In this document: positions 1-39,382 of the stretch, in pieces
Layout: every line of letters begins with the position of its first letter
Position numbering within the stretch: position 1 is the first letter of the stretch
Notes under the pieces: generated by a model
Told to the model about the DNA's origin: nothing
Database searches by the model: none
The model's input: only the letters and a program-made list of their open reading frames with translations
Position numbers and translations under genes: made by a program
Sequence record: NC_048063.1
DNA: 39,382 nt
Source of the DNA: Escherichia phage LL2
Strand: one strand, 5' to 3'

Positions 1-133
1 AAGCCTCCACCTAAAGACCAGACCTAAAGCCTCCACCTAAAGAGCGACGCTATCTTAAAGACAACCAGACCGATAGACCCACTGTTAACCTGTAGTGATG
101 CCCTGTAGTTGTCTATGGTGTCTATCGTCAATT

Positions 134-10379: not shown

Positions 10380-10795
10380 GCTCATATAGAAGCGGCTTAG
10401 AGCAGAAGAACATGGAGATGCTGGAACGTAATGGAATCAAAGGACAGTATGAAATGTGGTCTATTCCCTATGTTATCCCTGCATCGAACCACAAGTACAC
10501 ACCAGACATAATCCTACCCAATGGAATCATTATTGAGACCAAGGGTCTATGGGATAGTGAAGACCGTAAGAAACACTTACTGATTCGTGAGCAGATGCCT
10601 GAGTTGGATATTCGTTTGGTATTCTCTTCGAGCCGCTCTAAGTTATACAAAGGGTCTCCAACCAGTTACGGTGAGTGGGCCGAAAAGCATGGTATTCTAT
10701 TTGCTGACAAGCTGATTCCTGTGGAGTGGCTTAAAGAACCTAAGAAGGAGATACCGTGGGATAAACTAATTGCAAAGAAAGGAGTTAAGAAATAA
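10340..10795 (+). CDS. 3: Endonuclease I, Holliday-junction resolvase (gene 3)
   Basis: IPYVIPASNHKYTPDIILPNG...KGLWDSEDRKKHLLIREQMPELDIRLVFSSSRSKLYKGSPTSYGEWAEKHGI nearly identical to T7 endo I. Confidence 0.92.
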   Translation: MAARYAARGVKRVGSYRSGLEQKNMEMLERNGIKGQYEMWSIPYVIPASNHKYTPDIILPNGIIIETKGLWDSEDRKKHLLIREQMPELDIRLVFSSSRSKLYKGSPTSYGEWAEKHGILFADKLIPVEWLKEPKKEIPWDKLIAKKGVKK

Positions 10796-11250
10796 TGGCT
10801 AAGGTACAATTCAAAACGCGCGCTTCTACGGAAGCAATCTTTGTTCACTGTAGTGCAACCAAGCCAAGCCAGAACATTGGCGTTCGTGAGATTCGTCAGT
10901 GGCACAAAGAGCAGGGCTGGTTAGACGTAGGATATCACTTCATCATCAAGCGTGATGGCACTGTGGAAGCAGGCCGCGATGAACTGGCTGTAGGTTCCCA
11001 CGTGAAAGATTACAATCACAACTCTATCGGTGTCTGCCTTGTGGGTGGTATCGACGACAAAGGTAAGTTTGACGCTAACTTTACTCCAGCCCAAATGCAA
11101 TCTCTTCGCTCACTGCTGGTCACACTGCTGGCGAAGTACGAAGGGTCTGTTCTCCGTGCTCATCACGATGTTGCACCTAAAGCCTGCCCATCATTCAACT
11201 TGAAGCGCTGGTGGGAGAAGGACGAACTGGTTACATCTGACCGAGGGTAA
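10795..11250 (+). CDS. 3.5: Lysozyme / N-acetylmuramoyl-L-alanine amidase, also RNAP inhibitor (gene 3.5)
   Basis: 151 aa; MAKVQFKTRAST...FVHCSAT...GYHFIIKRDG...HHDVAPKACPSF match T7 lysozyme. Confidence 0.93.
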   Translation: MAKVQFKTRASTEAIFVHCSATKPSQNIGVREIRQWHKEQGWLDVGYHFIIKRDGTVEAGRDELAVGSHVKDYNHNSIGVCLVGGIDDKGKFDANFTPAQMQSLRSLLVTLLAKYEGSVLRAHHDVAPKACPSFNLKRWWEKDELVTSDRG

Positions 11251-16742: not shown

Positions 16743-16921
16743 TTATGCCAAAGAGTGACACTGTAACGATGACCCGTGATGCGTGGAACGATGTTAGCGC
16801 GTACATTGATAAGCTGGAGAAAGACCTAGAGTTCCTGAATGCGCTTAAGGCGTGTGGTGTGGATAATTGGGACGGATACTCTGATGCAGTCGAAATGGTT
16901 TACGGGGAGGGTGACCTATGA
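16739..16921 (+). CDS. Gene 5.9-position small acidic protein (RecBCD-inhibitor position), 60 aa
   Basis: ATG 16739 with GGGAGG RBS; acidic, similar size and placement to T7 gp5.9; sequence similarity only modest (...RD.WND...YID.LE...). Confidence 0.5.
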   Translation: MIMPKSDTVTMTRDAWNDVSAYIDKLEKDLEFLNALKACGVDNWDGYSDAVEMVYGEGDL

Positions 16922-17829
16922 GTTTGATTACCCTCAAAGACTTCGCTGAGATGCGCGAAGGCAAACCGATGGAGAAGGGCGTGCTGGTCATGGATGGTGA
17001 CTGGCTTGTGTATCAGTCGATGGCTGCTGCCGAAGTTGAGACGGATTGGGGAGACGACATTTGGACTCTGGAGTGTGACCACGCTAAGGCTCGTAGCATT
17101 CTTGATTCTGCAATCGAATCATACCGAACCCGCAAGAAGGCGTGGAGTGACGCTATGGTGGTTCTGGCGTTTACCGATGATGTTAACTGGCGTAAGGTGC
17201 TGGTCGATGAGACCTATAAGGAGAACCGCAAGGCGACCCGTAAGCCTGTTGGCTACCGTGACTTCCTGTCGAAGCTGTGGGAGCGCGATGAGTTCATTCA
17301 CATCAAAGAGGACATGCTGGAAGGTGATGACGTTATGGGCATCATTGGGTCTGGTCACGAGGTCTTCGGCTTCAAGAAGGCTGTGTTGGTCTCCTGTGAC
17401 AAGGACTTCAAGACTATACCGGACGTTGACTTCCTGTGGTGTACCACTGGTAACATCTTGACGCAGACCAAAGAGACCGCTGATTGGTGGCATCTCTTCC
17501 AGACCATCAAGGGTGATATGACTGATGGCTACTCCGGGATTCCCGGCTGGGGCGATACGGCAGAAGGTTTCCTGAATGACCCGTTCATTGTGGAGCCTGT
17601 AGAGTCCGTGTTGAAGTCTGGTAAGAACAAGGGGCAGACAGTAACCAAGTGGGTGAAGCGTGCTCCTGATGCGACTGAGACGCTGTGGGACTGCATTAAA
17701 TCCATTGGTGCCAAAGCTGGGATGACCGAGCAGGAAATCATCAAGCAAGGCCAGATGGCTCGCATTCTTCGCTTCGAGGAATACAACTACATTGACAAGG
17801 AGATTTACTTATGGACGCCGCGAAGCTGA
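16918..17829 (+). CDS. 6: 5'-3' exonuclease (gene 6)
   Basis: 303 aa; [13 protein letters not shown]..., [57 protein letters not shown] nearly identical to T7 gp6. Confidence 0.95.
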
Positions 17830-32300: not shown

Positions 32301-33284
32301 TCAAACTACATTCTTGATGCTGCCCGTCAGGGTGTGCTTGGGGATGTGGCTGGAGCGGCCCTTGCTGGGAAAGCCTCTAAGTTCGGTAAGGCAAACTACC
32401 TTAAGTCTGCCTCTATCAGCCCTGAGCAGTGGAATGGAATCAAGCAGTTGTTCAGAGACCATGCGACTCGTGGAGAAGATGGTAAGTTCACCATTCGTGA
32501 CAAACAGGCTTTCGCTAACGACCCACGTTCAATGGACTTGTGGCGACTGGCCGACAAGGTGGCGGATGAGACTATACTGCGCCCTCACAAGGTTTCCTCA
32601 CAGGACTCCAAAGCGTTCGGTGCAGGGGTGAAGATGGTGATGCAGTTTAAGAACTTCGTCATCAAGTCACTTAACTCCCGGTTCGTCCGTAGCTTCTACG
32701 AGGCAACGAAGAACAACCGTGCGCTAGACCAAGCGTTGACTCACATCATCTCTTTGGGTCTAGCTGGTGGTTACTACGTTGGGCAGGCGCACCTTAAGGC
32801 TGCAAGTCTACAGGAGCACAAACGTAAGGAGTACCTTAAGAACGCCCTTGACCCTAAGATGATTGCTCATGCATCAATCTCTCGTAGTTCACACTTAGGT
32901 TCACCATTGAGTATCTACGACATGTTCGCTGGGATGGTTGGTAGTGATACCTATAAGTACACCCGCTCTACGGTACTCCCTAAAGAGTCCGAGAAGCGTG
33001 ACCCTACCAAGGCAGTGACAGGTAGACAGGTAGCTTCAACTATCGCAGGTGCAATTGGTGAGCAGGTTCCGGGTTTAGGTTTTGTTGGCTCTGTGGGTGC
33101 AACAGCTATTAACGCCGCTTCCCTGCTGTCTTCTCCGAACAAGGCTACCGCTCTGGAGTTCCGTACAGGCCTCTTCAACACCTCTCGTGAGTTGATTCCT
33201 AATGACCCGCTATCGCAGCAACTCATTATGAAAATCTACGAGGCCAATGGTATCCGCATAAAGGAGATACCGAAGAAACAATAA
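29322..33284 (+). CDS. 16: Internal virion protein D with N-terminal lytic transglycosylase domain (gene 16)
   Basis: 1320 aa versus 1318 in T7; N-terminal LAFNESSFNPKAKSPTGPKGLMQFTKGTA is a soluble lytic transglycosylase motif. Confidence 0.93.
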   Translation: MSYDKNKPSEFDGLFQKAADKHGVSYDLLRKLAFNESSFNPKAKSPTGPKGLMQFTKGTATALGLKVTDADDDDRYNPELAVDAAARHLSDLIRKYDGDELKAALAYNQGEGRNGAPQMQAYDKGDWASISEEGRNYMRNLMDVANSPRKGDLEAFGGITPKAKGIPSGDAFAGIGKKQTVGTDLPESTGFKVEGKEQKAPNVPYAKDFWEKTGTTLDEFNSRSTFFGIGDATSAELHNSVLGVAFRAARSDDGFDLFKDTITPTRWNSHTWTPEELERIRKEVKNPAYINVVTGGSPENLDALIKMANDNYEMDARSADAGVGAKLTAGIVGAGVDPLSYVPLVGVAGKGLKVVNKAFIVGTQSAGLAVASEGLRTSIAGGEAHYADAALGGLMFGAGMSAISDAIAAGIRRSRGTEVVNDFAPMAHRLEARETALNSGGEDLTRMPSENRVFDREHAGVEYSPLETEPGAVVLPQGQILSDTNPMNPQTLSEFEAVNPERASRGISLGGFTEIGLKTLRSENPTVRSIASDLVRSPTGMESGSNGKFGATASDIKERLHANNQRTYNQLYDAVRTAMKDPEFSTGGATMSRKEIRQEIYKRAALAIERPEFQANLTKGERNVMNILKQHFDLKREIMENPSIFGNTKAVSIFPGSRHKGTYVPNVYDRAIKIEMVKRYGNDGLQRAIAESWLTSYRARPEVKARVDEYLMELNGLKSVQEVTPEMVQKHAMDKAYGISHADQFSASSVIDDNIEGLVGIENNNFLEARNMFDSDMAVTLPDGNTFSVNDLRTYDMAEILPAYDRRVDGDVAIMGGSGKTTKDLKDEIMALDKQSEGNGTLKGEVEALKDTVKILTGRARRNPEGAWGTALRSVNDLTFFAKNAYMGAQNVTEIAGMLAKGNVSAITHGIPMINDWVNRGKPLRASEIKELHGMVFGKELDQLIRPGREDHVRRLRESTDTSAAVANVVGTIRFGTQELAARSPWTMLLNGTSNYILDAARQGVLGDVAGAALAGKASKFGKANYLKSASISPEQWNGIKQLFRDHATRGEDGKFTIRDKQAFANDPRSMDLWRLADKVADETILRPHKVSSQDSKAFGAGVKMVMQFKNFVIKSLNSRFVRSFYEATKNNRALDQALTHIISLGLAGGYYVGQAHLKAASLQEHKRKEYLKNALDPKMIAHASISRSSHLGSPLSIYDMFAGMVGSDTYKYTRSTVLPKESEKRDPTKAVTGRQVASTIAGAIGEQVPGLGFVGSVGATAINAASLLSSPNKATALEFRTGLFNTSRELIPNDPLSQQLIMKIYEANGIRIKEIPKKQ

Positions 33285-33302: not shown

Positions 33303-33355
33303 GAGGTCACATTCTGGCCTCTTCTCTCCTAATGCTAATTTACAAAGGAGGTCAC

Positions 33356-35098
33356 ATGGCTACAACTATTAAGACCGTGATGACTTACCCGCTGGATGGT
33401 TCAACTACGGACTTTAATATTCCGTTCGAGTATCTGGCGCGTAAGTTCGTCCGAGTGACCCTTATCGGTGTTGACCGAAAGGAACTCACCTTGAATCAAG
33501 ACTATCGTTTTGCAACTAAGACCACAATCTCCACAACGAGAGCATTGGGGCCAGCGGACGGTTATAACCTTATCGAGATTCGGCGGTACACCTCAGCGAC
33601 TGAACGTCTGGTTGACTTTACGGATGGCTCAATCCTCCGTGCGTATGACCTGAACATCTCGCAGGTGCAGACCCTCCACGTTGCTGAGGAAGCGCGTGAC
33701 CTTACCGCTGATACGATTGGCGTTAACAACGATGGTGACTTGGATGCTCGTGGTCGTCGTATCGTGAACGTTGCGGACGCTAAAGACCCCGGTGACGCAA
33801 TCAACTTAGGTCAAGTCCAGAAGTGGAACGACTCTGCGTTGAACTCTGCGAACCGCGCACGGGCTGAGGCCGACCGTGCAACTGTGCGTGCTTCAGAGGC
33901 TGCTACCTCTGCGGGTAACTCTGCGAGTTCTGCAAGCCTGTCCCGTGATTGGGCTATCAAGGAATCTCCGGTGGAAGGAACCTTTAAGTCTTCCCGGTCG
34001 TATGCCATTGACTCTATGGCGTACCGGGATGCGTCCAAGAGTTCTGCCGATGCTAGTGCTGCAAGTGCTGGTGCCGCTAAGACCTCTGAGATTAACGCGA
34101 ATAACTCAAAAATCGCTGCGAAGACCTCTGAGACCAACGCGAAGACCTCTGAGAACAACGCTAAGGCTTCCGAGGAACGAGCCATTGAGGAAGCAAATAA
34201 GCTGGAGAACATGAATGATTTGGTTGGTGCAATTGATAAGGTAGATGGGGCAAATGTGTACTGGAAAGGAAATATTAACGCTAATGGGAGGCTTTTCCTG
34301 ACCACAAACGGTTTTGACTGTGGACAGTATCAACAGTTCTTTGGTGGTGTTACTTATCGTTACTCTGTCATGGAGTGGGGCGATAAGGACGGATGGCATT
34401 TGTATTCCGAGAGGAAAACCGAAGGCGGGAGGCCAACGCTCAATGTAAATGGTGATGTGAGCGTCGGTTTTGACATTCGGACGGGTGCTAATCAATTTGC
34501 TAATCACATGTTTGTACACGACAGGGTACAATACTGGCCCGGTGCTGGCATGTTTGTTAACCAGTTGTCTGTCCCAGAAGCGCCATTTATCAAACAAGGG
34601 AGATATGAGGCCCCATCTGGTAACAGCTTATACGCCCCTATTGTTAAGGGAATCATACGGACGGCAGGTCACGGGTATGACACAGCGCTGTCCTTTGGTA
34701 CTCTAACACAGGGTAACGGGTCGTTTGCTTCTGCGGGTATTCATGCGATTGGGGATAACGGCACTTCTGGTTTCTGGGAATTTAACCCTAACAATAGGTC
34801 CTTCCGTAGTCAAGGTGATGGGTTCTTTGGCAACACTACTGTCTATCAGGATGGTAACATCGGTGGCCCTACGTGGGGTGGCGACCTAGCGCACTGGCTC
34901 AGAGTAAATACGGTTAACCACATTGCTATGGGCGGAGTCAACCAGTCAATAGTGTGGAATAGCTACGGTGTTTCTGATGGTGGCGGCAAGGTAGTAACTG
35001 GCGTTGTAAACTCTAACGCTGATGGTGCGATAGACTATTGTCAGTGGCGTGTTATGCAATACGTTCGTAACGACGGTCAATGCTTTAATATTTACTGA
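33356..35098 (+). CDS. 17: Tail fibre protein (gene 17), conserved N-terminal tail-attachment domain, coiled-coil shaft, divergent distal domain
   Basis: N-terminus MATTIKTVMTYPLDGSTTDFNIPFEYLARKFV...LVDFTDGSILRAYDLN matches T7 gp17; start at ATG 33356 with AAGGAGG RBS; central KVDGANVYWKGNINANGRLFLTTNGFDCGQYQQFFGG is also T7-like. Confidence 0.92.
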   Translation: MATTIKTVMTYPLDGSTTDFNIPFEYLARKFVRVTLIGVDRKELTLNQDYRFATKTTISTTRALGPADGYNLIEIRRYTSATERLVDFTDGSILRAYDLNISQVQTLHVAEEARDLTADTIGVNNDGDLDARGRRIVNVADAKDPGDAINLGQVQKWNDSALNSANRARAEADRATVRASEAATSAGNSASSASLSRDWAIKESPVEGTFKSSRSYAIDSMAYRDASKSSADASAASAGAAKTSEINANNSKIAAKTSETNAKTSENNAKASEERAIEEANKLENMNDLVGAIDKVDGANVYWKGNINANGRLFLTTNGFDCGQYQQFFGGVTYRYSVMEWGDKDGWHLYSERKTEGGRPTLNVNGDVSVGFDIRTGANQFANHMFVHDRVQYWPGAGMFVNQLSVPEAPFIKQGRYEAPSGNSLYAPIVKGIIRTAGHGYDTALSFGTLTQGNGSFASAGIHAIGDNGTSGFWEFNPNNRSFRSQGDGFFGNTTVYQDGNIGGPTWGGDLAHWLRVNTVNHIAMGGVNQSIVWNSYGVSDGGGKVVTGVVNSNADGAIDYCQWRVMQYVRNDGQCFNIY

Positions 35099-35110: not shown

Positions 35111-35635
35111 ATGGGAACTTTACGTCACTATAAGAATTTCGTAAATTACACTCCAGAACGCACCAAAGAGAATGCAGACCTTCTAGACCACGGAGTCGGT
35201 TTCTCAAAGGATGAGAACGGGAATGACTGGTATGAACTTCGCAAGACATTCCGTGAGGATACATGGAAACTTGTCTACGCCAAAGATGGTTCAGTTATTC
35301 AATGTGAACAGGATGTTCAGGAGTTAGCCGTTCAGGGATCTGCTGGGGTGGTTGAGCTTGAGGAAATCCCTGCTGAGTATTCTCGGTACAATATGGTTCA
35401 GTGGTGGTGGGACGGCGATAAGCTAACTTGGTATCCTCGGTACTTTGAGCACAAGAAGGCCCAGCTAATCTCTATGGCCTCCAAGAAGATTGAGCAGTAT
35501 GCTGACTTTATAGCTCTTGGGGAGGAGGGATTAGAGGGTATACTAAATGCGTGGCGAGCCTATCGCCTTGCTGTATATAAAGTAGACCTGAGTGTTCTAC
35601 CTTTCTATGACTGGCCCGAGCAACCAGAAACCTAA
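35111..35635 (+). CDS. Tail-fibre assembly chaperone, lambda Tfa-like
   Basis: 174 aa; C-terminus LNAWRAYRLAVYKVDLSVLPFYDWPEQPET follows the conserved Tfa C-terminal pattern (AW..YR..L..VD.S....WP..P); AGGAGG RBS; sits directly after the fibre gene. Confidence 0.7.
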   Translation: MGTLRHYKNFVNYTPERTKENADLLDHGVGFSKDENGNDWYELRKTFREDTWKLVYAKDGSVIQCEQDVQELAVQGSAGVVELEEIPAEYSRYNMVQWWWDGDKLTWYPRYFEHKKAQLISMASKKIEQYADFIALGEEGLEGILNAWRAYRLAVYKVDLSVLPFYDWPEQPET

Positions 35636-35694
35636 TGACAACCTCAAGGAAAGACGTGTAGTCCACGGATGGACTCTTACAAGGAGGACACTAC

Positions 35695-35898
35695 ATGCTG
35701 TCTTTAGATTTTAACAACGAGTTAGTCAAGGCTGCACCTATTGTTGGTACAGGTGTGGCTGATGGCGCTGCGAGGCTTTTCTTCGGGCTGAGTCTTAATG
35801 AGTGGTTCTATGTTGCCGCTATCGCCTACACAGTGGTTCAGATTGGTGCCAAGGTAGTCGATAAGATGATTGACTGGAAACGTGCAAACAAGGAGTAA
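35695..35898 (+). CDS. 17.5: Holin, class II (gene 17.5)
   Basis: 67 aa; MLSLDFNNELVKAAPIVGTGVADGAARLFFGLSLNEWFYVAAIAYTVVQIGAKVVDKMIDWKRANKE is nearly identical to T7 gp17.5. Confidence 0.9.
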   Translation: MLSLDFNNELVKAAPIVGTGVADGAARLFFGLSLNEWFYVAAIAYTVVQIGAKVVDKMIDWKRANKE

Positions 35899-35901
35899 CC
35901 T

Positions 35902-36168
35902 ATGAGTGACAAGACTTTAATCAAGCTGCTGGAGATGCTAGACACTGAGATGGCACAGCGTATGCTTGCTGACCTCCAGAGCGAGGAACGCCGAACTCCG
36001 CAGCTTTACAACGCAATCGGCAAACTGTTAGACCGCCATAAGTTCCAAATCAGTAAGCTGACCCCGGATGAGAACATCCTTGGCGGTCTCGCGGCAGGTC
36101 TGGAAGACTACAACAAAGTGGTCGGCCCTAATGGTCTGACTGACGATGAGACTATCACGCTACAGTAA
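35902..36168 (+). CDS. 18: Terminase small subunit (gene 18)
   Basis: 88 aa versus 89 in T7; position before Rz/terminase large. Confidence 0.8.
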   Translation: MSDKTLIKLLEMLDTEMAQRMLADLQSEERRTPQLYNAIGKLLDRHKFQISKLTPDENILGGLAAGLEDYNKVVGPNGLTDDETITLQ

Positions 36169-36175
36169 GTGACAT

Positions 36176-36215
36176 ACTCAAGGTTCTCCACTCGGGGGAG
36201 CCTTTATGGATGTTA
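36176..36215 (+). promoter_or_regulatory. RNase III-site hairpin repeat (R18.5-like)
   Basis: TACTCAAGGTTCTCCACTCGGGGGAGCCTTTATGGATG. Confidence 0.45.
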
Positions 36216-36258
36216 TTTGGTGCATCTATGTGAAATCTGAAAATTGATGGGAGGTGTT

Positions 36259-36711
36259 ATGCTAAAACTTTTACGCAGCGCACTCCCTTGGGTACTCGCC
36301 GGGACACTCTTTATGGGTGGCTGGCACTTAGGGTCAACCCATGAGAGAGCAAACTGGAAGGAGGTAATCCAAAATGAGTACATTGCGAAAACAAAAGCAA
36401 CCGCAGCAACTCAGGCAGAGGTCAGTCGGGTATCCCGTGAGTACCAAGAAGAGATTGCAGCCATTGAAGGCAGCACTGATAGGATGCTTAATGACCTGCG
36501 TAGTAATAATAAGCGGCTGTCAGTCCGCATCAAGACCCTTACCGGACTACCAGAAGATAACGGTAGATGCGAGTTTAATGGTCGAGCCGAACTACACGAG
36601 TCAGATGCTAAGCATATTATCGGAATAACCCAAGCTGCTGATGCTCACGTAAGAGCGCTCCAGCGTACTATTAAGGAGATGCAGAATGAGCGACACCCAA
36701 GCAAACCGTAA
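36259..36711 (+). CDS. 18.5: Rz-like inner-membrane spanin (gene 18.5)
   Basis: N-terminal transmembrane segment [18 protein letters not shown], coiled-coil periplasmic part; GGGAGG RBS before ATG 36259; resembles T7 gp18.5. Confidence 0.8.
36374..36628 (+). CDS. 18.7: Rz1-like outer-membrane lipoprotein spanin (gene 18.7), embedded in +1 frame of 18.5
   Basis: Lipobox-like [11 protein letters not shown]; AAGGAGG RBS; fully nested in 18.5 as in T7. Confidence 0.65.
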   Translation: MSTLRKQKQPQQLRQRSVGYPVSTKKRLQPLKAALIGCLMTCVVIISGCQSASRPLPDYQKITVDASLMVEPNYTSQMLSILSE

Positions 36712-38449
36712 TGCGCTAATCATCGCGCAGCTTAAGGGTGACTTCGTGGCCTTCCTGTTCGTATTGTGGAAGGCTTTGGCTCTCCCGCCGCCGACTAAGT
36801 GTCAGATTGATATGGCCCGGTGTCTGGCTAACGGAGACAACAAGAAGTTTATCCTACAGGCTTTCCGTGGTATCGGTAAGTCATTCATCACCTGTGCGTT
36901 CGTTGTGTGGACGTTATGGCGTGACCCTCAGTTGAAGATACTAATTGTCTCTGCATCCAAAGAACGTGCGGACGCTAACTCCATCTTCATCAAGAACATC
37001 ATTGACCTGCTGCCATTCTTGGCTGAGCTAAAGCCTCGCCCCGGTCAGCGTGACTCTGTGATTAGTTTCGATGTTGGCCCTGCCAAGCCTGACCACTCTC
37101 CGTCTGTGAAGTCGGTGGGTATCACTGGTCAGTTGACTGGTAGTCGTGCTGATATCATCATAGCGGATGACGTTGAGATTCCGTCTAACTCCGCAACTCA
37201 AGGTGCCCGTGAGAAGCTGTGGACTCTGGTGCAGGAATTTGCTGCGCTTCTGAAACCACTGCCGACTTCTCGCGTTATCTACCTTGGCACGCCTCAAACC
37301 GAAATGACCTTGTACAAGGAACTCGAAGATAACCGTGGGTACACCACAATCATCTGGCCTGCGCTCTATCCGCGTAGCCGTGAGGAAGACTTGTATTATG
37401 GCGACCGTCTGGCCCCGATGCTCCGCGAAGAGTTCAACGATGGGTTCGAGATGCTCCAAGGTCAACCGACTGACCCCGTGCGCTTCGATATGGAAGACCT
37501 GCGTGAGCGTGAGTTGGAATACGGTAAGGCTGGCTTCACTTTGCAGTTCATGCTCAACCCGAACCTGAGTGATGCCGAGAAGTACCCCTTACGCCTCCGT
37601 GACGCTATCGTGTGCGGTCTGGACTTCGAGAAAGCCCCAATGCATTACCAGTGGCTTCCGAACCGTCAGAATCGCAATGAAGAGCTACCTAACGTTGGCC
37701 TTAAGGGTGATGATATTCATAGCTATCATTCGTGCAGTCAGAACACTGGACAGTACCAGCAACGCATCCTCGTGATTGACCCTAGTGGTCGAGGTAAGGA
37801 TGAGACTGGTTACGCAGTGTTGTTCACCCTGAATGGCTACATCTATCTGATGGAAGCTGGCGGGTTCCGCGATGGTTATTCCGATAAGACCCTTGAGTCC
37901 CTCGCTAAGAAAGCGAAGCAGTGGAAGGTTCAGACAGTGGTCTTCGAGAGTAACTTCGGGGATGGCATGTTTGGTAAGGTATTCAGCCCTGTGCTCCTGA
38001 AACACCATGCAGCGCAACTTGAAGAGATTCGTGCTCGCGGTATGAAGGAACTACGCATTTGTGATACGCTGGAACCTGTACTCTCTACGCACCGCCTTGT
38101 GATTCGTGACGAGGTGATTCGTGAGGACTACCAGACTGCCCGTGACGCTGATGGCAAGCATGACGTTCGCTATTCGCTGTTCTACCAGTTGACCCGTATG
38201 GCCCGTGAGAAGGGCGCTGTGGCCCACGATGACCGACTTGATGCGTTAGCATTGGGTGTGGAGTTCTTACGCTCTACGATGGAACTGGACGCTGTGAAGG
38301 TGGAGGCTGAGGTGCTTGAGGCATTCTTAGAGGAACACATGGAGCACCCAATCCATTCGGCTGGTCACGTAGTTACCGCTATGGTTGACGGGATGGAACT
38401 CTATTGGGAGGATGACGATGCGAATAGCAACAGGTTCATTGACTGGTAG
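36686..38449 (+). CDS. 19: Terminase large subunit (gene 19)
   Basis: 587 aa versus 586 in T7; ATPase and nuclease motifs; overlaps 18.5 end. Confidence 0.96.
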
Positions 38450-38925: not shown

Positions 38926-39382
38926 CCCTAAAGGTTATACCTAAAGATGCCCTGTAGTTCGTAATGGTCTTACAGGGTCTTCTGGTGTCTCCTAGCTATC
39001 CCTTCGGGATGCGCCTATGGTCTCACCTATGGTGTGGCCTTACCTAAAGTGGTTGCCTAAAGAGACCCTTTAAGAATTTACCACAAAAATCTGAATGGGT
39101 ATCTCACAGTTCAAGAACCCAAAGTACCCCCATAGACCTCCTAAAGCCACCTAAAGCCAGCCCTACCCCTAGGGTTTAACCTTCGGTTAACCTTGGGTAT
39201 CTCCTCAAGTGGCCTATAGGATAGCCTAAAGTGTGGCGTAAAGTCAATACCTAAAGTGATGGGTGACTATTGGAGACTTAAAGAGTGTCCTAGTGTACCA
39301 GTTCGATAGTACATCTCTATGTGTCCCTATCTGTTAGCCTCATAAAGTAAACCCTAAAGCCTCCACCTAAAGACCAGACCTA
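38926..39382. repeat. Array of CCTAAAG heptamer-containing short repeats flanking the terminal repeat; continues at 1..45
   Basis: More than ten CCTAAAG occurrences, including the 26-mer AAGCCTCCACCTAAAGACCAGACCTA at 39357..39382, again at 1..26 and partially at 27..43. Confidence 0.6.
39102..39338. repeat. Terminal repeat unit (single copy in this rotated assembly); physical genome left end at about 39102
   Basis: TCTCACAGTTCAAGAACCCAAAGTACCCCCATAG... parallels the T7 left terminus TCTCACAGTGTACGGACCTAAAGTTCCCCCATAG...; GTGTCCCTATCTGTTAGCC parallels the end of the T7 repeat; boundaries inferred by analogy. Confidence 0.5.

Follow-up and report, generated by a model that had tools for sequence, protein, structure and literature searches.

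The open reading frames at 36259..36711 and 36374..36628 of the window, i.e., the whole stretch of 39,382 nt that was analysed, are almost certainly genes 18.5 and 18.7 of a Teetrevirus of the phiYeO3-12 type, which encode the subunits Rz and Rz1 of an embedded two-component spanin. This pair is real, ordinary and already known, being annotated in phiYeO3-12 and T7 and included in a catalogued spanin family. As a discovery it is of little weight; its uses are as an example of dual coding and in the annotation gap that it exposes. Both genes were found on the plus strand, each preceded by a Shine-Dalgarno (SD) sequence:

36259..36711, plus strand: Rz (gene 18.5), i-spanin, 150 aa; ATG at 36259, TAA at 36709-36711
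36374..36628, plus strand: Rz1 (gene 18.7), o-spanin prolipoprotein, 84 aa; ATG at 36374, TAA at 36626-36628
36250..36256, plus strand: SD of Rz, GGAGGTG, read from the sequence; 2 nt upstream of the ATG at 36259 and 4 nt from it when counted from the GGAGG core
36358..36365, plus strand: SD of Rz1, AAGGAGGT, 8 nt upstream of the Rz1 ATG and within the Rz codons W-K-E-V

The Rz1 ATG is located 115 nt downstream of the Rz ATG, which corresponds to the +1 frame, and Rz1 lies entirely within Rz. The first-pass annotation had described Rz1 as embedded in this frame, and its coordinates were correct to the base; the AAGGAGG ribosome-binding site that it had assigned to Rz1 was also found, at 36358-36365 and 8 nt from the ATG. 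The octamer AAGGAGGT is present in five copies in the 39.4-kb window, all on the plus strand, compared to 1.15 expected. Further upstream of Rz, an in-frame TTG (36244) and an in-frame ATG (36247) are both without an SD, and all Rz homologues start with M-L-x-x-L-K/R, for which reason 36259 was taken as the Rz start. The other ORFs across the region were short, with at most 56 codons on the minus strand and at most 27 codons in the +2 frame.

Rz1 matched the Pfam family O_Spanin_T7 (PF17531) with 74.8 bits (E = 5.2e-21), thereby passing the gathering cut-off of 25 bits, and the match aligned Rz1 residues 25-83 with profile positions 1-58 of 59. In addition, Rz1 matched phrog_4306, described as 'Rz-like spanin', over residues 1-84 (1.1e-39), and Rz matched phrog_1327 with the same description (1.1e-61). 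These matches bear out the earlier reading of the locus as an embedded two-component spanin of a T7-like phage, and the remark that such an arrangement is expected in these phages agrees with the nested 18.5 and 18.7 genes annotated in phiYeO3-12 and T7. Rz also showed 22.2 bits (E = 1.8e-4) to Phage_lysis (PF03245), the family of lambda Rz, which is below the gathering cut-off of 25.4 bits; judged by this score, Rz is akin in kind to PF03245, distant from it in sequence and no formal member. No meaningful match to either Rz or Rz1 was found in NCBIfam, and a sequence search of the PDB returned no solved relative of either protein. The equivalents of Rz and Rz1 were reportedly defined by Summer et al. 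2007 (J Mol Biol 373:1098). The homologue of Rz1 is annotated as 18.7 in phiYeO3-12 and as 'outer membrane lipoprotein Rz1' in ESh10. Both T7 and phiYeO3-12 are members of a 39-member embedded T7 i-spanin family, and the phiYeO3-12 o-spanin was put in the K11 subfamily by the spanin database (PMC6139136).

Two features of Rz bear on its assignment as an i-spanin:

36280..36333, plus strand: Rz residues 8-25, putative inner-membrane anchor; no other stretch of Rz is hydrophobic, and K3 and R6 lie on its N-terminal side
36568..36570, plus strand: codon of Rz Cys104, in the linker between two helical segments; the sole periplasmic Cys of the pair

The best Kyte-Doolittle window of 17 residues starts at residue 4 and has a mean of 1.31, which is modest, and the pLDDT of the anchor stretch in an AF2 model was below 50; the hydrophobic character of residues 8-25 was kept in all aligned homologues. 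The AF2 model, made from the single sequence, predicted helices at residues 28-47, 52-95, and 114-145 and a low-confidence linker, delimited as residues 96-113 or, more narrowly, as 99-111. Since the mean pLDDT was 63, only the secondary structure was taken from this model. As modelled, Rz has the pattern of an i-spanin, i.e., two predicted periplasmic segments of helical (coiled-coil) type with a linker between them. The linker Cys was present in every aligned Rz homologue, and a homotypic disulfide was found to be nearly universal in a survey of spanins (PMC6139136). The rule from this survey, at least one periplasmic Cys in either subunit, is satisfied here by Cys104. By analogy with the work on lambda and T4 (PMC6139136), this residue probably forms a homotypic intermolecular disulfide.

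Rz1 could be divided into three parts, of which the second and third share the codon of the lipidated Cys49 (36518-36520):

36374..36445, plus strand: Rz1 residues 1-24, basic and sequence-variable N-terminal extension with five K/R and no D/E
36446..36520, plus strand: Rz1 residues 25-49, with n-region KKRLQPLK, an h-region of 13 residues and lipobox ISGC
36518..36625, plus strand: mature Rz1, 36 aa, with Gln at +2 and a conserved C-terminal motif ending in LS

The best hydropathy window of the h-region comprised 13 residues from residue 34 with a mean of 2.85. Rz1 matched the PS51257-type core pattern {DERK}(6)-[LIVMFWSTAG](2)-[LIVMFYSTAGCQ]-[AGS]-C and, by pattern match only, fits the o-spanin lipobox [LVI][ASTVI][GAS]C. 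The lipobox check proposed earlier thereby gave a positive outcome at the level of pattern matching, with ISGC and Cys49 located after a hydrophobic stretch. Usual lipoprotein signals have the Cys near residue 20, and the PROSITE rule PS00013 places the lipidated Cys at positions 15-35 and a K or R within the first seven residues. Cys49 of Rz1 falls outside this range, and the charge is provided by R5 and K6. Thus, the lipoprotein reading of the first-pass annotation holds as regards the presence of a lipobox signal and has to be qualified as regards its length, which is atypical. The mature protein contains three Pro in 36 residues and no Cys beyond the lipidated one. The residue at +2 is Gln in the window and Q, A, V or T across homologues. 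A lipoprotein with a residue other than Asp at +2 is sorted to the outer membrane under the Lol rule, and Rz1 is predicted to be sorted in this way because of its Gln.

For a comparison across genera, the Rz loci of 17 further phages from at least seven genera (Teetrevirus, Teseptimavirus, Minipunavirus, Przondovirus, Berlinvirus, Kayfunavirus and Ghunavirus, together with three records without assigned genus) were collected, which gave 18 loci including the window. A search of viral contigs with Rz found only five near-identical loci; the distant loci were taken from the spread of tblastn matches in GenBank phages. In this set, Rz identity to the Rz of the window falls to 26-31%. The +1 frame was open over 86-122 codons in 17 of the 18 Studiervirinae loci, and the +2 frame over at most 42 codons. 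A lipobox [IVA][SA][GA]C with an invariant Cys was present in all 18 aligned Rz1 sequences (n = 18; 17 loci with an intact Rz, TM1, in which Rz is broken, being left out). Besides, the h-region (ALIG) was conserved among the Rz1 homologues and the C-terminal V-D-x-S-L was invariant. When homologues were compared with the proteins of the window, Rz1 (39-55% identity) was as similar as Rz (26-53%) or more so in 10 of 14 cases. In eight Teetrevirus sequences that are nearly identical, replacements in Rz1 were found at codons 2, 19, and 20 in the extension and at codons 54 and 57 in the linker, and the sole further replacement was the conservative I81V.

For column entropy, 15 Rz genes were aligned by codon; within the overlap, Rz codon positions 1, 2, and 3 correspond to Rz1 positions 3, 1, and 2. 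The values, in bits for Rz positions 1/2/3, were as follows:

Before the overlap: 1.10/0.86/1.36
Rz1 residues 1-24: 0.94/0.88/1.36
Rz1 residues 25-48 (signal and lipobox): 0.74/0.48/0.83
Rz1 linker: 1.33/0.93/1.16
Rz1 C-terminal 21 residues: 1.01/0.71/0.45
After the overlap: 0.92/0.67/1.50

Outside the overlap, the ordinary pattern of a single reading frame was seen, with the third position of Rz the most variable. In the segment encoding the signal and lipobox of Rz1, all three codon positions were conserved. At the Rz1 C-terminus, where by this measure the constraint within the overlap is strongest, the wobble position of Rz (the second position of Rz1) was the least variable and the first position of Rz (the wobble position of Rz1) the most. 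This switch from the pattern of the Rz frame to that of the Rz1 frame indicates that both frames are selected, in largely complementary segments. Judged from the aligned codons, purifying selection is acting on Rz as well as on Rz1, in line with the first-pass description of the locus as a clear case of dual coding. The pair is a clean worked example of such coding, in which codon-position statistics locate the constraint by frame and by segment. In lambda, mutational analysis showed the constraint to be likewise segregated between the frames (PMC5295617, PMC6139136).

The same data bear on two readings that would remove one or the other gene from the spanin pair. Rz1 might be a chance open frame within Rz and not a gene, with its SD-like and lipobox-like sequences arising as by-products of Rz coding. 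The length of the frame gives this reading some room: when the Rz protein was kept fixed and synonymous codons were resampled according to the codon usage of the phage, 7.8% of the resamples had a +1 frame open over 86 codons or more and 0.4% had an ATG-initiated ORF of 84 codons or more, the corresponding values under codon shuffling being 1.4 and 0.3%, and +1 ATG ORFs of 90, 104, and 155 codons are also present in three long genes of the window (genes 1, 6, and 16). ORF length by itself is therefore weak evidence for Rz1 (p about 0.003-0.08), and the case for the gene rests on homology, cross-genus conservation and codon-position statistics. All of these speak against a chance frame, namely the matches to PF17531 and phrog_4306, the retention of the frame, the lipobox Cys and the C-terminal motif across at least seven genera with Rz identity down to 26%, the entropy that follows the Rz1 frame at the Rz1 C-terminus, and an Rz1 identity that is mostly not lower than that of Rz. 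We regard the probability of a chance frame as negligible; as far as sequence evidence goes, this reading is refuted by the conservation pattern. It is also very improbable that gene 18.5 encodes a murein endopeptidase that degrades the cell wall instead of a subunit for membrane fusion. This legacy reading survives in several GenBank records, in which the homologue is labelled 'endopeptidase Rz' or 'probable endopeptidase'. However, no peptidase family was matched in Pfam or NCBIfam, the AF2 model predicted an anchor and long helices and no globular catalytic domain, and the residues conserved in the family are confined to segments of coiled-coil type and the linker Cys. Besides, Rz-type proteins are treated in the current literature as spanins that act through membrane fusion (PMC6139136, PMC5295617).

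With Rz and Rz1 both taken as spanin genes, the start of Rz1 has to be considered. The leader that precedes the lipidated Cys comprises 48 aa in the window, 53 in Kayfunavirus and 39 in Pseudomonas ghunaviruses. It might be that Rz1 is real and translated from an internal codon, the candidate being GTG 36437 (codon 22), so that the 5′ 63 nt would be untranslated or unneeded. Such a start would yield a conventional lipoprotein signal peptide of 27 residues in place of a 48-residue leader that is unusual among lipoproteins. It would also agree with the restriction of the PF17531 match to residues 25-83, with the clustering of the within-genus replacements at codons 2, 19, and 20, and with the entropy values: the third position of Rz has 1.36 bits over Rz1 residues 1-24, as outside the overlap, and there is therefore no constraint from the Rz1 frame on these residues. 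Against this, GTG 36437 is preceded merely by GAGGT, 14 nt upstream, and TTG 36455 and TTG 36464 are without an SD. The positions of internal starts are not conserved between lineages, and IME15 and Erwinia SNUABM04 have no ATG, GTG or TTG before the h-region other than the far start. The far start is also the only one that is preceded, in each of the lineages examined, by a proper SD (GGAGG or longer, with a spacer of 4-9 nt), and the phrog_4306 alignment spans the full Rz1. In addition, the extension is free of stop codons in all lineages. Under synonymous resampling, the chance of this is 0.11-0.9 per lineage; multiplied for about 10 lineages, these values give a joint chance of approximately 1e-5, a figure that is approximate because the lineages share ancestry. 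We find initiation at an internal codon quite unlikely, and the far ATG at 36374 appears, from these comparisons, to be the real Rz1 start.

The extension comprises 24 residues in the window and 15-29 in other lineages, and its sequence is not conserved; it is always basic, with 3 to 8 K/R and 0 to 2 D/E across lineages. In the simplest reading, the conserved Rz motif W-K-(Q)-E-V-x-N-E-Y, which encodes GGAGG...ATG, locks the initiation signals of Rz1 in place, and the extension is a tolerated, elongated n-region. That the long leader is a functional element, e.g., by slowing or gating Sec/Lgt processing, seems to us unlikely. If the leader did gate processing, the build-up of spanin subunits in the outer membrane would be timed to fit holin triggering. 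The one unusual detail of this locus is the long basic leader found in the T7-family Rz1 proteins, its frame being open despite the unconstrained residues 1-24, and no comment on it was found in the accessible literature.

The genomes closest to a 1.3-kb query around the locus were those of Shigella phage ESh10 (98.0% identity), Leclercia phage 10164-302 (97.7%) and Yersinia phage phiYeO3-12 (95.6%), three members of Teetrevirus within Studiervirinae. The window is thus a Teetrevirus genome that is T3/phiYeO3-12-like and not T7 proper. The gene order in the closest genomes is an annotated holin followed by genes 18, 18.5, 18.7, and 19. The surroundings of the spanin genes and the endolysin gene of the window are given below:

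35695..35898, plus strand: holin, gene 17.5, 67 aa; PF10746 Phage_holin_2_2 (1.9e-35), phrog_920
10795..11250, plus strand: endolysin, gene 3.5 N-acetylmuramoyl-L-alanine amidase, 151 aa; PF01510 Amidase_2 (4.6e-17), distant from the spanin genes
36169..36258, plus strand: stable stem-loops between genes 18 and 18.5; MFE -31.3 kcal/mol, z = -2.75; a stem_loop is annotated in NC_001271
33281..33302, plus strand: nearest upstream T3-type phage promoter (phi17 position), before gene 17, with one mismatch to the consensus
36686..36711, plus strand: overlap of 26 nt between the Rz 3′ end and the start of gene 19, likewise annotated in phiYeO3-12
36686..38449, plus strand: gene 19 (large subunit of the terminase), which shares its frame with Rz1

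The holin gene 17.5 and the amidase gene 3.5 round out the lysis set together with Rz and Rz1. In phiYeO3-12, the counterpart of the intergenic stem-loops is R18.5, a putative RNase III site. T3-type promoter sites were found 12 times in the window compared to 0 expected, and the promoter at 33281 likely drives genes 17, tfa, 17.5, 18, 18.5/18.7, and 19 in a transcript whose extent we infer. A scan for sigma-70 promoters and intrinsic terminators over 35600-36900 gave counts no higher than those of shuffled sequences, for which reason no dedicated promoter was assigned to the spanin genes. No Rfam family was matched in a scan of the whole window.

On the basis of homology and of the work on lambda and T7, both genes would be transcribed late, from phage promoters, and Rz and Rz1 would each be translated on their own. 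Rz would be inserted in the inner membrane through its N-terminal anchor in an N-in/C-out orientation, with a coiled-coil periplasmic domain, and would dimerize through Cys104. Translation of Rz1 from the far ATG would produce the 48-residue leader, the first 24 residues of which would be a basic passenger shaped by the Rz frame, and the protein would then undergo Sec export, lipidation on Cys49 and cleavage by signal peptidase II. Owing to the Gln at +2, Rz1 would be carried by Lol to the outer membrane and placed in its inner leaflet. The C-terminus of Rz1 would bind the C-terminal helix of Rz, and the complex would span the periplasm through the murein meshwork. Once the cell wall is removed by the holin gp17.5 and the amidase gp3.5, the complexes would collapse, the inner membrane would fuse with the outer one and thereby disrupt it (PMC6139136, PMC5295617), and the virions would be released. 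According to the T7 linkage map as cited in PMC3276506, the last 10 residues of T7 gp18.7 bind to the last 50 of gp18.5; together with the strong constraint on the Rz1 C-terminus, this gives indirect support to a C-terminal interaction in the pair of the window.

In the annotated records that were fetched, the embedded Rz1 was omitted in 13 of 16, and ESh10 has Rz1 annotated but Rz omitted. This annotation gap shows that automated pipelines still miss half of the spanin lysis function.

Compared with known systems, the pair is closest to the 18.5 and 18.7 genes of phiYeO3-12 (NP_052120/NP_052121), which have the same nesting, the same lengths (150 and 84 aa), the same offset of 115 nt and the same SD, and which share the 26-nt overlap with gene 19 and the upstream stem-loop. 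The phiYeO3-12 annotation lists 17.5 as holin, 18 as small terminase, R18.5, 18.5 with the nested 18.7 as 'Rz-like spanin' and 19 as large terminase. Only 6 nucleotide differences were found in 453 nt, which lead to A50T, M76V, and H119R in Rz and to S2N, Y20C, and I81V in Rz1; however, the genomes differ upstream, where the window has a tail fibre assembly gene. T7 gp18.5/gp18.7 shares the embedded architecture, a 48-residue Rz1 leader starting with MSTLR, the lipobox ISGC, the C-terminal SLMVEPN motif of Rz1 and the single Cys in the Rz linker, but the identity to T7 is only 53% for Rz and 46% for Rz1, and T7 Rz, with 143 aa, has no overlap with gene 19. The allele present in T3 itself is of the T7 type, with 90.5% identity to T7 (PMC3276506). 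Thus, the phiYeO3-12 type found in the window is a distinct allele in the genus, and the lysis module is mosaic within the genus.

In the lambda Rz/Rz1 system, Rz1 is likewise embedded in the +1 frame of Rz and encodes a small outer-membrane lipoprotein partner, and lambda Rz likewise has an inner-membrane anchor and two helical segments with a Cys-containing linker, although the sequence similarity to the window is marginal (22.2 bits to PF03245, under the cut-off). Lambda Rz1 has a signal of 19 residues, a periplasmic Cys29 and a proline-rich core (partly PMC6139136). In contrast, the Rz1 of the window has a leader of 48 residues and, in its mature form, no further Cys and no proline-rich core, and its spanin genes are located between the genes of the terminase subunits and not beside the endolysin gene as in lambda.

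The spanin genes of the window, Rz (gene 18.5, 36259..36711) and the embedded Rz1 (gene 18.7, 36374..36628), were compared with those of related phages. The Rz protein of T7 showed only 53% identity to Rz of the window and to that of Yersinia phage phiYeO3-12, whereas gp18.5 of T3, which also belongs to Teetrevirus, is 90.5% identical to T7 gp18.5 (PMC3276506). Among the Rz protein matches, 80 records showed at least 95% identity and 1080 records less than 60%, with a gap in between. Taken together, this sequence comparison indicates that the spanin module is mosaic within Teetrevirus.

The following gene separates tail fibre gene 17 (33332..35098) from the holin:

35111..35635, + strand, tail fibre assembly/chaperone gene, 174 aa (phrog_136, 9e-39)

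Among the top matches listed, only Shigella phage ESh10 and the Leclercia 10164 phages have this gene in common with the window. For the remaining relatives in the list, phiYeO3-12 included, the match begins approximately 60–84 nt into the query (window 35659–35683), that is, downstream of the tail fibre assembly gene, which points to a swapped receptor-binding module.

The embedded Rz1 gene was unannotated in 13 of the 16 annotated GenBank/RefSeq records (loci L003 and L009–L023), the ESh10 record contains an annotated Rz1 but not Rz, and "endopeptidase" is still the name given to Rz in many records. In Escherichia phage TM1 (locus L021, MT808983.1; 485..487), a TGG to TGA nonsense change was detected in Rz at the Trp of N-K-W-E-A-K, and two Rz fragments are annotated in the record. 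The same base change weakens the Shine-Dalgarno (SD) sequence of Rz1 from GGGAGG to GAGAGG, and the Rz1 frame is intact. The nonsense change is either a sequencing error or the mark of a natural spanin-defective phage.

An additional ORF was detected in the +1 frame of the gene 6 exonuclease (16918..17829):

16994..17461, + strand, ATG-initiated ORF of 155 codons

Its first 63 residues matched phrog_36692 (4.6e-28), which, judged from position and length, is probably the counterpart of a 76-aa product of phiYeO3-12 that is labelled "putative 6.1 protein". Since both the start and the stop of the ORF differ between the window and phiYeO3-12, it is probably not a gene.

An exact 26-nt repeat was common to both ends of the window (1..26 and 39357..39382), each of which falls in the junction region rich in CCTAAAG. 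Accordingly, the window appears to be a complete genome of approximately 39.36 kb that was circular in the assembly and was opened at an arbitrary point, rather than one bounded by the true terminal repeats.

The intergenic region 5′ of Rz (36169..36258) was predicted to form a pair of stable hairpins, with a folding energy of −31.3 kcal/mol (z = −2.75), and its counterpart in phiYeO3-12 is annotated as a putative RNase III site, R18.5. At the other end of Rz, the following overlap was found, which is absent from T7:

36686..36711, 26 nt, overlap of the 3′ end of Rz with the start of gene 19 (terminase large subunit)

Gene 19 and Rz1 share one reading frame, and gene 19 has an SD sequence of its own, TAAGGAGA.

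Within Rz1, the far start is the only one backed by an SD sequence. Residues 1–24 (36374..36445) are basic and, in the window and the same region of L001–L023 (the compared phage loci), without sequence constraint; the frame is nevertheless open in all lineages compared. The leader preceding the Cys is 48 aa long in the window; in Kayfunavirus its length is 53 aa, and in the Pseudomonas ghunaviruses 39 aa.
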